From IMG/VR virus record IMGVR_UViG_2541047502_000019: DNA of 12,137 nt. The stretch is one strand, 5' to 3'. Position numbers: made by a program. This DNA comes from a virus (lineage: Duplodnaviria; Heunggongvirae; Uroviricota; Caudoviricetes). Numbering within the stretch: the first letter of the stretch is position 1; every line of letters begins with the position of its first letter. Of this stretch, positions 9,001 through 12,000 are shown piece after piece.

Positions 9001-12000
9001 AGCCAGTTTCATCGCAGTTTCAGGACTGACATAAACGTCTGTCCGGAACAGCCCATCAGTATCAACGGCATCCCCGGTTATCGGGGTGGAAGGATTCTCC
9101 AGTGATTTACTTCTGAACAGAGCATCAAGCAGCACGCGTCCCCCTTCTGGCCATAGCCAGTGCGCCCACCAGCAGTAAACCGCCGGACAGCATCAGAGCC
9201 GGAGCCATACCAAACTGCAGGTAAAACCCGCACGTAAGCAGGCCAAAACCAGCCAGCCCGATAACATCAGCAATTAGTGATTTCATAGAATTAAGAGAGC
9301 ATCGTCCGGATCAAGAGATGAGAGGAAATCGTCGGGTTCTTTGAGCATTGCCCGACCGATCGCCATAATCAGCGCAACCGCACCATCGATTTTGTTTTCC
9401 GCCTGCTCCTTGACAGGCTTCACCACATCATCGTTACCCGGAATGGTTTTGCCGACCACGTTGCCGATACACCAGGTCATGATGGGATTGCCGTCATGAT
9501 GAAAGCGCCCCGATTCAATCGCCGCTTCCAGCTCTTTCATCGGATCGGACATGTTGGTGTAGTTCTGAATGATGGTGATGGGGTTCAGGTCTTCATCAGC
9601 AAGGTCATGCGACAGCCCGGTCGCCCCGAAGGGGTCGATGGGTGACTCACTGACCGGGCTGATTTTGTTCGCCGCTTTGGCCTCCTCGAGGATGTACCGA
9701 TAATCCACCTCCGCACCAGCGGTAACAGTCAGAACGCCCATTTCCACCCATTTCTGAAAGCGTTCGGCTGTCCGGCGATCTTCATTTTTCTCGACGCTGT
9801 ACACCGTGTCATACGGTACCCAGAAACGCGGGGCCACACTGTAGTAATGCGTTTTACCGTCAATCTCGCGGGTATAAAGTCGCGCCATGCTGTTCATATC
9901 CAGCTTACGCGCCAGGTCAAAGGCCAGAATGCACGGCTGCCCCTCGAACTGCTCAAGGGTCAGTGATTTATCCTCGCAGCTCTGCCAGCTCACCAGGTTG
10001 AAATACGCCGAACGCGCCGACACCCAGATATTGAGGTGTTTTGTTTTAAAGACGTTTGCCAGACGGGCGTTATTTTTCGCACGCTGCTGCTGACTTAACA
10101 AAAATTCGCGATAAACCGACACGCCAATATTTGGATTGGCTTTTTCCAGCACCTGCGGGTCGATCCAGTCGTCACCTTCATCAACGGTATAGATGATCCC
10201 GAACAGTTCATCGTTGGGTACCGAACCGTTGAGCATCTCGATAACTTCCCGCCGCTTGTCGTAGCACGGCCCCTCAATGTTGTACCCGGCGGTGGTGATG
10301 GCCCACATCAGTGGCTGACGTCGCGCCCCCATCCCGGTAAGCATCGTGGTATAAAGCGCATCGGTGGCGTGCTCGTGATATTCATCCACCACCGCACAGT
10401 GGGGTGATGAACCATCACCAGGGTTACCGATCAGCGGTTCAAACCGCGCACCATCCTCCGGACGGTTCATGTTTGAGGCGTTAACCTCAATCCCGAACGC
10501 TTCCGTCAGCATGGGTGTGCGTTTACACATCAGTCGTGCCGGACGAAAGACTTCCCATGCCTGTTTCTCCGTCGTGGCACCGGAATACACTTCCGCGCCG
10601 AACTCGTTATCACAGGCAAAACAATACAGGGCGACACCGGCAGAGATTGCCGATTTGCCGTTCTTACGGGGGATTTCGGTATACACCTCCCGGAAGCGGC
10701 GCAGCCGGGAGCCTTTATTGACCCAGCCAAACGCGCAGCAGATCACAAAGAGCTGCCACGGCTCCAGCGTGATGGGCATCCGTTTGAATGCCCACTCACC
10801 CTTGGTGTGCGGCAACAGCTGAATAAATTTCGCGGCCCGTTCAGCCAGGTCCTTGTCGAAGCGGTAACGAAACGACTTACTTTTTTCCGCCATCAGGTCA
10901 TCAAGATGGCGCTGGCAGGCCTGAATCACAAACTGGCAGGCCACAATCTTTCCGCGCACGACATCACGGGCATACTGATTTGCAGCATTTACGTTGGGGT
11001 AAGATTTCCGGCTCATGATTCGATAATTTTCAGAAACGGGTTAGTGGCTTTCTTCTGCCCCGCCAGGCCAATCAGACGCTGGCGGCTGCTGGGGTCGAGT
11101 CCGAGCATTGCCCCCGTACTGCTCATCTCGGACTCCTGTTCTTTTTTGGCGGTCAGCTCCGGATTTTTGACCATGCCGCCCATTGCACCGGTGATGGTGT
11201 TGCCCTGTCTGGCAATATTTTTCACGGCACGTCGCCAGAACTCATAGGCCACGCACCACCGCTCAAGCACCGCGAGGTCAGTCACGCACAGCAGGCCCTG
11301 ACCGCAGAGTTCTTTGGTTGTCAGTTGCCACATGATCGTGGCGAGAGGGAGATCTTCTTCAGCGAACCACTCCGGTGGCTCAACACCTTTGATGGGCGTA
11401 AAAACAGGTTCATCTTTGTTCAGGGCTCGCTTGCCGGGGTTTCCGGCCAGCGCCTTGCGCGCCGTTGGCTTGGGGCGACGCCCGGAACGCCCCGCCGTTC
11501 CAGCCATATGCGGCACTCCTGGTTAAATTTCATTTTTCGCGGGTATAAAAAAACGATGGGGCGGGCAGTCCGGAAGACGTCAGGTCACAGGGATTTGACC
11601 CGCCCCTCCCCTCTGGCAGTGGGAACTGGTTCTTACTTCAGCCGTTCACGGGCCGTCTTCGCCTTATGACACGGCCAGCACAGGCTCTGCAGATTGCTGT
11701 CGGCATCAGTGCCGCCATGCGCTTTAGGGATGATGTGGTCAACGGTTTTCGCCTCGCGCACCACACCGGCACGCAAACACAACTGACACAGGCCTTTGTC
11801 ACGCTTTAGTACACGCCCCCGGATAACATCCCATTTCGAACCATAACCGCGCTGGTGAACCGCCCCGGAAATCCTGGAGACTAAACTCCCTGAGAAAGAG
11901 GTAAACAGGATGACTAAAAATACTCGTTTTTCCCCCGAAGTCCGTCAGCGGGCGATTCGTATGGTTCTGGAAAGTCAGGATGAATATGACTCACAGTGGG

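Follow-up and report, generated by a model that had tools for sequence, protein, structure and literature searches.

A very probable cos site of the SfI/SfV type between the HNH and small terminase genes of an Escherichia coli O157:H7 prophage

The stretch of DNA described here, hereafter called the window, comprises 12,137 nucleotides (nt) from a virus of the class Caudoviricetes (IMG/VR record IMGVR_UViG_2541047502_000019) and is 100% identical to Escherichia coli O157:H7 chromosomes. Its 125-nt non-coding interval at 11508-11632, located between an HNH gene and the gene of the small terminase subunit (TerS), is very probably the cos (the site of the cohesive ends) of an HK97-like prophage of the SfI/SfV type. 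A preliminary description, made from the sequence of the window alone, had proposed a candidate cos at this place. The proposal is borne out by a match of 123 of 125 positions to the Shigella phage SfI, by the 10-nt cohesive end mapped in that phage, and by block-wise conservation among relatives. It is correct but ordinary, as this type of cos is already known and has been mapped experimentally in near-identical phages. For annotation, the assignment fixes the genome ends and the packaging mode (cos with 10-nt ends) of a module that is widespread in E. coli, with the HNH-cos-TerS junction being present in about 1100 of 5426 complete genomes (about a fifth). Worth pursuing are the comparative anatomy of the site, its occurrence as a cassette in a satellite-like island, and a match between its inner boundary and the nick sites of HNH enzymes.

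Positions within the site are numbered along the coding strand, which is the minus strand of the window, and the outer cut lies between -1 (window 11558) and +1 (window 11557). In a megablast comparison with phage records, the deposited linear genomes of the Shigella phages SfV, SfIV, and SfI start or end within the interval. The SfI record ends with ...ACTGCCCGCCCC (also given as ...GGACTGCCCGCCCC and ...TCCGGACTGCCCGCCCC), its last base corresponding to window 11558, and restarts with GTCGTTTTTTTATACCCGCG... For SfI, run-off sequencing directly on virion DNA, done from each end, left a gap of 10 nt, 5'-TGCCCGCCCC-3', compared with the prophage sequence, and this gap was taken by its authors as the cohesive end of cos (PMC3636060). 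According to the SfIV paper, one cos is common to SfI, SfII, SfIV, and SfV (PMC3851460). The 10-mer occurs once in the window, on the minus strand (11567→11558), i.e., as the reverse complement of window 11558-11567. Over its entire length, the interval is identical to the SfI junction at 123 of 125 positions and to SfV at 115 of 125. The window has C at -34 where SfI has T, and A at +1 where SfI has G; these two substitutions both fall at variable alignment columns. The preliminary description had named two tests, the position of mapped genome ends in close relatives and the conservation of the interval among related prophages. The SfI ends lie inside the interval, and conservation is strong, block by block, in 37 distinct relatives. 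In a text search of the literature, ACCCGCGAAAAATG gave no match, and among the matches listed for TGCCCGCCCC or its reverse complement, none was on phage.

The run-off reads of SfI leave a gap instead of an overlap; therefore, the 5' ends would be recessed and the cohesive ends would be 3' overhangs. The register of the 10-nt end matches that of the 10-nt 3' end of HK97. The GenBank record of SfV starts 17 nt upstream of the outer cut mapped in SfI (TCCGGACTGCCCGCCCCATCG...), and thus the ends of the SfV record are not physical ends. In the paper on SfI, the cos of SfV is termed "postulated" (PMC3636060).

The anatomy of the site emerges from relatives retrieved by TerS protein from species-representative genomes. 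The resulting 43 loci span 99% to ~50% protein identity and come from genomes as diverse as those of Shigella, Xenorhabdus, Gilliamella, and Cupriavidus; 37 distinct upstream regions were aligned. As these align essentially gap-free, all spacings are fixed. The conserved blocks reach 1.2-1.76 bits per column, compared with 0.1-0.6 in the flanks and the spacer. Going along the coding strand, the features of the site are the following:

11508..11632, minus strand: cos region, the whole non-coding interval (open reading frames, Pfam, and RefSeq annotation; 123/125 identical to the SfI junction).
-80 to -56, minus strand: far upstream, 0.1 bits per column.
11599..11611 (-54 to -42), minus strand: G-rich box GGGGAGGGGCGGG, 1.2 bits per column; holds the repeat arm 11599-11606 discussed below.
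11589..11598 (-41 to -32), minus strand: TCAAATCCCT (TCAAATCYCT), 1.5 bits per column.
11572..11588 (about -30 to -15), minus strand: variable spacer with GACGTC, 0.56 bits per column; its length is kept, its sequence is not.
11568..11571 (-14 to -11), minus strand: GGAC, 1.7 bits per column; the AC is invariant (A54 and C55 in the alignment).
11558..11567 (-10 to -1), minus strand: cohesive end 5'-TGCCCGCCCC-3', 1.2 bits per column; exact match to SfI, putative 3' overhang.
+1 to +4, minus strand: short stretch past the cut, 0.56 bits per column.
11547..11553 (+5 to +11), minus strand: T-run, 1.57 bits per column.
11523..11546 (+12 to +35), minus strand: ATACCCGCGAAAAATGAAATTTAA, 1.76 bits per column, the best-conserved block; candidate cosB-like TerS site.
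+36 to +45, minus strand: ribosome-binding region, 0.6 bits per column.
11528..11610 (about -53 to +30), minus strand: portable cos cassette with all conserved blocks (island match, conserved blocks).

The G-rich box is found at the same spacing in HK97 and in the Bacillus phage Gamma. Within TCAAATCCCT, the AAAT is invariant and its distance to the GAC is fixed; the invariant columns of the alignment are herein A28, A29, T30, C33, and T34. In the cohesive 10-mer, the GCC near the 5' end is conserved and the 3' half is variable. In the information table, the best-conserved block is given as TATACCCGCGAAAAATGAAATTTAA (+11 to +35, 1.76 bits per column), and up to +30 the downstream module consists of the T-run and TATACCCGCGAAAAATGAAA (+5 to +30). 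The inner nick would be located on the plus strand of the window between 11567 and 11568 (5'-GGGGCGGGCA^GTCC-3'), a boundary provided by the 10-nt gap of SfI. In the HK97 and Gamma records, the boundary likewise lies directly after AC. The outer nick would separate 11558 from 11557 on the minus strand.

With this anatomy, a terminase consisting of a P27-type small and an HK97-type large subunit (TerL) would cut concatemeric DNA with the aid of the adjacent HNH protein. Two staggered nicks would flank TGCCCGCCCC (window 11567→11558) and leave 3' cohesive ends of 10 nt. The functional site would extend from about -53 to +30 (window 11610-11528) and comprise three parts. The upstream module, composed of the G-rich box, TCAAATC, and the fixed-length spacer, would come to lie at the genome's right end after packaging. 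Because it is common to phages with different TerS, it is probably read by the HNH/TerL part of the machine. In the nick region, consisting of GGAC and the ten nucleotides between the two nicks, the inner nick would abut the invariant AC, and the outer nick, which falls in variable sequence, is probably set by distance. The downstream module, with the T-run first and TATACCCGCGAAAAATGAAA after it, is the probable TerS binding site and co-varies with the TerS type.

The two halves of the site behave as separate modules in viral contigs. The pattern of the upstream half, GGGG..G...AAATC-21 nt-GAC.GCC, matched more than 120 viral contigs, of which 80 were examined; these contain 81 matches, 77 of them real. 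According to the sequence after the cut, the real matches form four classes, each with its own TerS type:

Type A downstream block: this window and SfV.
Type B downstream block: HK97 (representative contig L110).
Type C downstream block: ...CATCGCCGCAGGTTMGAAAACTTTTTTT (representative contigs L060, L119, and L062).
Type D downstream block: ...TTTTTACGCG..CRAAATAAG...TTTTTTT (representative contigs L091 and L122).

Between types A, C, and D, the identity of TerS amounts to only 21-35%, and none of them resembles gp1, the TerS of HK97. HNH is 68-83% identical across the same three types, and TerL is 36-58% identical. At the DNA level, all types match the window with an identity of ~0.6-0.75 on the upstream side of the cut; on the downstream side, the value is ~0.9 in type A and drops to 0.3-0.5 in the other types. 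Hence, a mosaic boundary is located at the cut, and the block downstream of it co-varies with TerS. Since the downstream half changes with the TerS type, it is likely, judging from the sequences, the TerS binding site, as is cosB of lambda and phage 21. The comparison provides a base-level map of an HK97-like cos family, in which the upstream module is common across TerS types and the downstream module is type-specific.

One upstream half is found joined to four unrelated downstream blocks (viral contigs L052-L131), with the similarity breaking at the cut. Such a break suggests either recombination at or near the cohesive ends or an exchange of whole arms between phages with compatible ends. 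In viral contig L078 (3115-8694), two HNH-cos-TerS modules of like orientation are separated by 2.87 kb, and an insertion sequence (IS) element of the IS3 type truncates the first TerL gene.

The downstream block (+5 to +35) may also be viewed as a leader or regulatory element for TerS expression, whose co-variation with the TerS type would be mere linkage. The ribosome-binding site (AGGAG at +39) follows it directly, and the block switches along with the TerS gene, as such an element would. We nevertheless consider this explanation improbable: no promoter-like site was found at the interval, and the block is better conserved than the ribosome-binding region (1.76 versus 0.6 bits). Furthermore, the equivalent position in HK97 is an experimentally mapped TerS site, and a satellite-like island retains the block up to +30 with no TerS after it, being followed by the host genes clpS and clpA.

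Some E. coli genomes carry the island in question, which is ~11 kb long, between cspD/yljB and clpS (NZ_CM135151.1, L176 3898-14400; also L125). It encodes an integrase, regulators, a primase, a single-stranded DNA-binding protein (SSB), a major capsid protein, a decoration protein, and a Nu1-like small terminase. At its end, it contains an 83-bp segment that is ~95% identical to window 11610-11528 (-53 to +30), and on either side of this segment island and window show no similarity. As the island carries just -53 to +30, and the edges of the segment are those of the conserved blocks, the segment delimits cos. HNH, P27-type TerS, TerL, and lambda cosN are absent from the island. It looks like a satellite that borrows the packaging machinery of an SfV-type helper, with the 83 bp serving as a portable cassette. 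The phage-inducible chromosomal islands published for E. coli have cos sites of the lambda/phi80 type (PMC6739421), so that a 3'-cos cassette beside a Nu1-like protein is unexpected.

The preliminary description had further pointed to an 8-bp inverted repeat and to the palindrome GACGTC within its loop as possible cosN or terminase-binding elements. Both are present in the sequence as described: on the plus strand, the arms GGGGCGGG (11558-11565) and CCCGCCCC (11599-11606) are separated by 33 nt, and GACGTC occupies 11576-11581. When the interval is shuffled, 5.4% of the resulting sequences contain an inverted repeat of 8 bp or more with a loop not exceeding 60 nt, and so do 19 of 201 window tiles of the same size (9.5%); with chance yielding a repeat of this length so often, the repeat alone is weak evidence. 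One arm (11558-11565) lies inside the cohesive end, and the other (11599-11606) is part of the separately conserved G-rich box. A perfect 8-bp repeat between the G-rich box and the cohesive-end region is found in only seven of 39 sequences, and HK97 has 3 bp. Covariation of the arms was not found in the alignment: 72.6% of the cells are paired, compared with 74.7% in column shuffles (479 of 500 shuffles at or above the observed value), and slid registers pair at 59-69%, close to the register of the repeat. RNAalifold returned no consensus structure (-1.7 kcal/mol, four pairs).

These observations bear on the possibility that a hairpin is the functional element, be it an RNA structure or intrinsic terminator after HNH or a DNA cruciform. 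The coding strand reads GGGGCGGG-33 nt-CCCGCCCC-ATCG-TTTTTTT, which places a run of seven T 4 nt past the repeat, and the minimum-free-energy RNA fold joins both arms. However, the energy of this fold does not stand out (z = -1.73, with an equal or better fold in 11 of 200 shuffles), no terminator-like site was detected in 11300-11900, and the loop of 33 nt is far beyond the canonical range of 3-8 nt. Together with the missing covariation, which largely refutes a hairpin as far as aligned sequences can tell, the weak RNAalifold consensus and the scarcity of the 8-bp repeat (3 bp in HK97) make this reading very improbable. The inverted repeat is incidental and not a functional unit, arising as a by-product of a G-rich box opposite a C-rich cohesive end. 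GACGTC is rejected as a functional palindrome, as it sits in the variable spacer and is kept in only three of 39 sequences. A tRNA-like element or known RNA family was also considered, the motif TCAAATCC resembling a T-arm, but ARAGORN and Rfam gave no match.

A more specific assignment of enzymes to nicks can be considered from published HNH enzymes. N.phiGamma nicks CG^GT (equivalent to AC^CG with the opposite strand nicked), which is relaxed by Mn2+ to AC^TG and others, and N.phi105 nicks YG^GTY (PMC3592412, PMC4027164). In these studies, Xu and Gupta measured the specificity of cos-adjacent HNH proteins on plasmids, and cos was not brought in (PMC3592412, PMC4027164). An earlier suggestion, as cited in a passage of PMC12967558, is that HNH nicks one strand and TerL the other.

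The Gamma record ends with ...GGGTAGGGGCGGG-28 nt-TAC/CGCCGCCCC, where the slash marks the boundary of the cohesive end; the 9-mer is repeated at the start of the record, and the boundary is exactly AC/CG. Accordingly, the inner boundaries read GTAC/CGCCGCCCC in Gamma, GAC/CGCCGCCAAA (GAC/CGCC) in HK97, and GGAC/TGCCCGCCCC (GAC/TGCC) in the window. With 3' overhangs, the inner nick is located on the strand complementary to the coding strand. Both the position and the strand of the N.phiGamma specificity agree with the inner cos boundary of Gamma, HK97, and the window. In phi105 (GAC-C/GCGCTCC), the AC^YG position is one base off the annotated 7-nt cos. In addition, the upstream half is conserved together with unrelated TerS from enterobacterial phages (SfV-like, HK97) to the Bacillus phage Gamma. 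We tentatively propose, as a possibility that we hold for rather doubtful, that the upstream half is a very widespread module read by the cos-linked HNH protein (with or without TerL), with HNH making the inner nick at 5'-CR^GT-3' on the complementary strand (coding AC^YG) and TerL making the outer nick 9-10 nt away. The proposal is weakened by the Gamma cos, which reads ACCGC and lacks the preferred flanking purine, and by several packaging HNH enzymes that appear non-specific when assayed alone. It is further weakened by the conflicting descriptions of the 9-nt ends of Wbeta/Gamma, given once as a 5' overhang (PMC8878798) and once as a 3'-extended cos (PMC4113786). A link between HNH nick specificity and the inner cos boundary was not found in the literature examined. 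The proposal agrees with the earlier suggestion of one strand for HNH and the other for TerL. If true, it would decide, for 3'-cos phages that depend on HNH, by which enzyme each strand is cut; it is testable and concerns a point left open by the 2024 structural paper on HK97 (PMC11331095).

The genes of the window are all on the minus strand. The order is HNH, the interval, a Terminase_4 TerS, an HK97-type TerL, portal, protease, and the capsid gene (Pfam, RefSeq). The interval 11508-11632 is precisely the gap from the HNH stop codon (TAA, 11635-11633, minus strand) to the small terminase ATG (11507, minus strand); open reading frames, Pfam, and RefSeq agree on it, and so its earlier description as non-coding DNA between these two genes is accurate. 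The features next to the interval are:

9283..11016, minus strand: large terminase (TerL), HK97 type (Pfam TerL_ATPase and TerL_nuclease; 6Z6D match).
11013..11507, minus strand: small terminase (TerS), P27 family, Terminase_4 (Pfam PF05119, E 2e-21; RefSeq annotation).
11633..11857, minus strand: 3' fragment of HNH, a pseudogene without the N-terminus (Pfam HNH, E 1e-16; RefSeq "incomplete").
11857..12137, plus strand: left end of IS1203/IS629, IS3 family (annotated IS629 matches; RefSeq IS1203 transposase; HTH_Tnp_1).

The sequence of Pfam families, HNH, Terminase_4, TerL_ATPase/TerL_nuclease, and Phage_portal, is the arrangement expected of an HNH-dependent 3'-cos system of the HK97 type, with the HNH gene being interrupted. 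For TerL, the sole solved relative in the Protein Data Bank (PDB) is the HK97 TerL 6Z6D (E 1.2e-24). For TerS, no solved relative was found by sequence, and its single-sequence AlphaFold model has a mean predicted local distance difference test (pLDDT) score of 39, which makes it unusable for comparison with HK97 gp1.

The interruption of HNH is caused by IS1203/IS629, which starts at ~11857 (its orfA at 11910), covers window 11857-12137 and continues beyond it (L050 6911-8124), and splits the gene into two annotated pseudogene pieces, the 5' fragment lying beyond the IS. The insertion occurs in 21 of 5426 complete E. coli genomes, and those listed are all O157:H7-like. Copies of the prophage with ~99-100% identity and an intact HNH gene also exist. 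Because HNH is split, the prophage most likely cannot cut its own cos unless HNH is supplied in trans, although the cos sequence is intact; the O157:H7 copy has, thus, probably lost self-packaging through the insertion. We consider it an even chance that the prophage is a defective relic, with the interval functionless in this genome at present. In favor of a usable site, only two substitutions in 125 positions separate cos from the functional SfI cos, each in a variable column, the insertion is a recent event found in few genomes, and the HNH protein or terminase of a related co-resident or superinfecting phage could act in trans. Being a relic would concern present activity and not the identity of the element.

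Several points weigh against this assignment or parts of it. The mapped ends come from SfI, and none come from virion DNA of the present prophage. The 3' polarity for SfI is derived from the gap, and the SfI paper gives no statement on polarity. The search pattern forces the upstream half, so that the conservation of this half in the viral-contig set is partly circular; the TerS-anchored loci and the records of HK97, Gamma, and phi105 are free of this bias. The downstream block lies next to the ribosome-binding site and could have a dual role, acting in expression as well. Lastly, TerS has no BLASTP similarity to HK97 gp1, for which no Pfam family matched, while TerS here belongs to Terminase_4. 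Since the two proteins are unrelated in sequence, the link to the TerS site of HK97 rests on position and a short motif only.

Among known systems, lambda (cosQ-cosN-cosB, with the lambda/21 specificity) follows the same logic. Common to both are a nick site whose upstream element lies at the packaged genome's end and a downstream TerS site that co-varies with TerS, the nick region being shared across specificities. Unlike the site described here, lambda has a 12-nt 5' overhang, a Nu1-type TerS, an IHF (integration host factor) site, and no HNH. The lambda cosN GGGCGGCGACCT is absent from the window, and an IHF site as in lambda cosB is rejected because the consensus WATCAANNNNTTR has no match. 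A lambda-type cos, therefore, does not apply: cosN sequence and IHF consensus are both missing, and TerS is of the Terminase_4 family.

The Bacillus phages Gamma and Wbeta share part of the architecture. They contain a GGGGCGGG box 28 nt upstream of (G/T)AC, with the AC abutting the inner boundary of the cohesive end, and the Gamma HNH carries a zinc ribbon at its N-terminus and shares 36% identity with the SfI-type HNH over 105 aa. They differ in their Gram-positive host, in the 9-nt end CGCCGCCCC, and in having GAAAA instead of AAATC.

In the SfI, SfII, SfIV, and SfV group, the cohesive end TGCCCGCCCC is identical to that of the prophage. The neighbors are the same HNH, P27-type TerS, and TerL, within an HK97-like head module that is combined with a contractile tail. 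Compared with these Shigella phages, the present site belongs to a prophage of E. coli O157:H7, with its HNH gene interrupted by IS1203.

HK97 is the reference 3'-cos phage, with 10-nt overhangs (PMC9410871, PMC11331095, PMC5557969). Within one paper, the stated overhang length differs between a figure legend (10 nt) and the Discussion (12 nt) (PMC9410871). As cited in PMC13595911, HK97 cos requires the HNH protein gp74. As in the window, cos lies between HNH and TerS and consists of a G-run, TCAAATC, 21 nt, GAC, and a 10-nt end. The HK97 record ends with ...GGGGGGGGGATCAAATC-21 nt-GAC CGCCGCCAAA, exactly 10 nt past GAC, and restarts with GTTTGAATTTAACGCTAACCCGATTTTTTT; these ends align in the register mapped in SfI (GGGGGGGGATCAAATC-21 nt-GAC/CGCCGCCAAA/). 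The counterpart of TCAAATCCCT is GATCAAATC, with the same 21-nt spacing to GAC. Further downstream, the HK97 TerS site extends from +15 to +29 (CTAACCCGATTTTTT), where TerS contacts the C:G pair of position 21 in a base-specific manner and reads the A-tract by shape (PMC11331095). In the window, ACCCGCGAAAAA (ACCCGCG, then AAAAA) is found at +14 to +25, and the HK97 site shares the core of ACCCG and an A-tract at a similar distance. Unlike the window, HK97 has the cohesive end CGCCGCCAAA and a different downstream block, and identity amounts to only 37% over 71 aa for its HNH and to 26% over 482 aa for its TerL. The site, hence, works like the cos of HK97, but with a TerS and a downstream module that are not of the HK97 kind.

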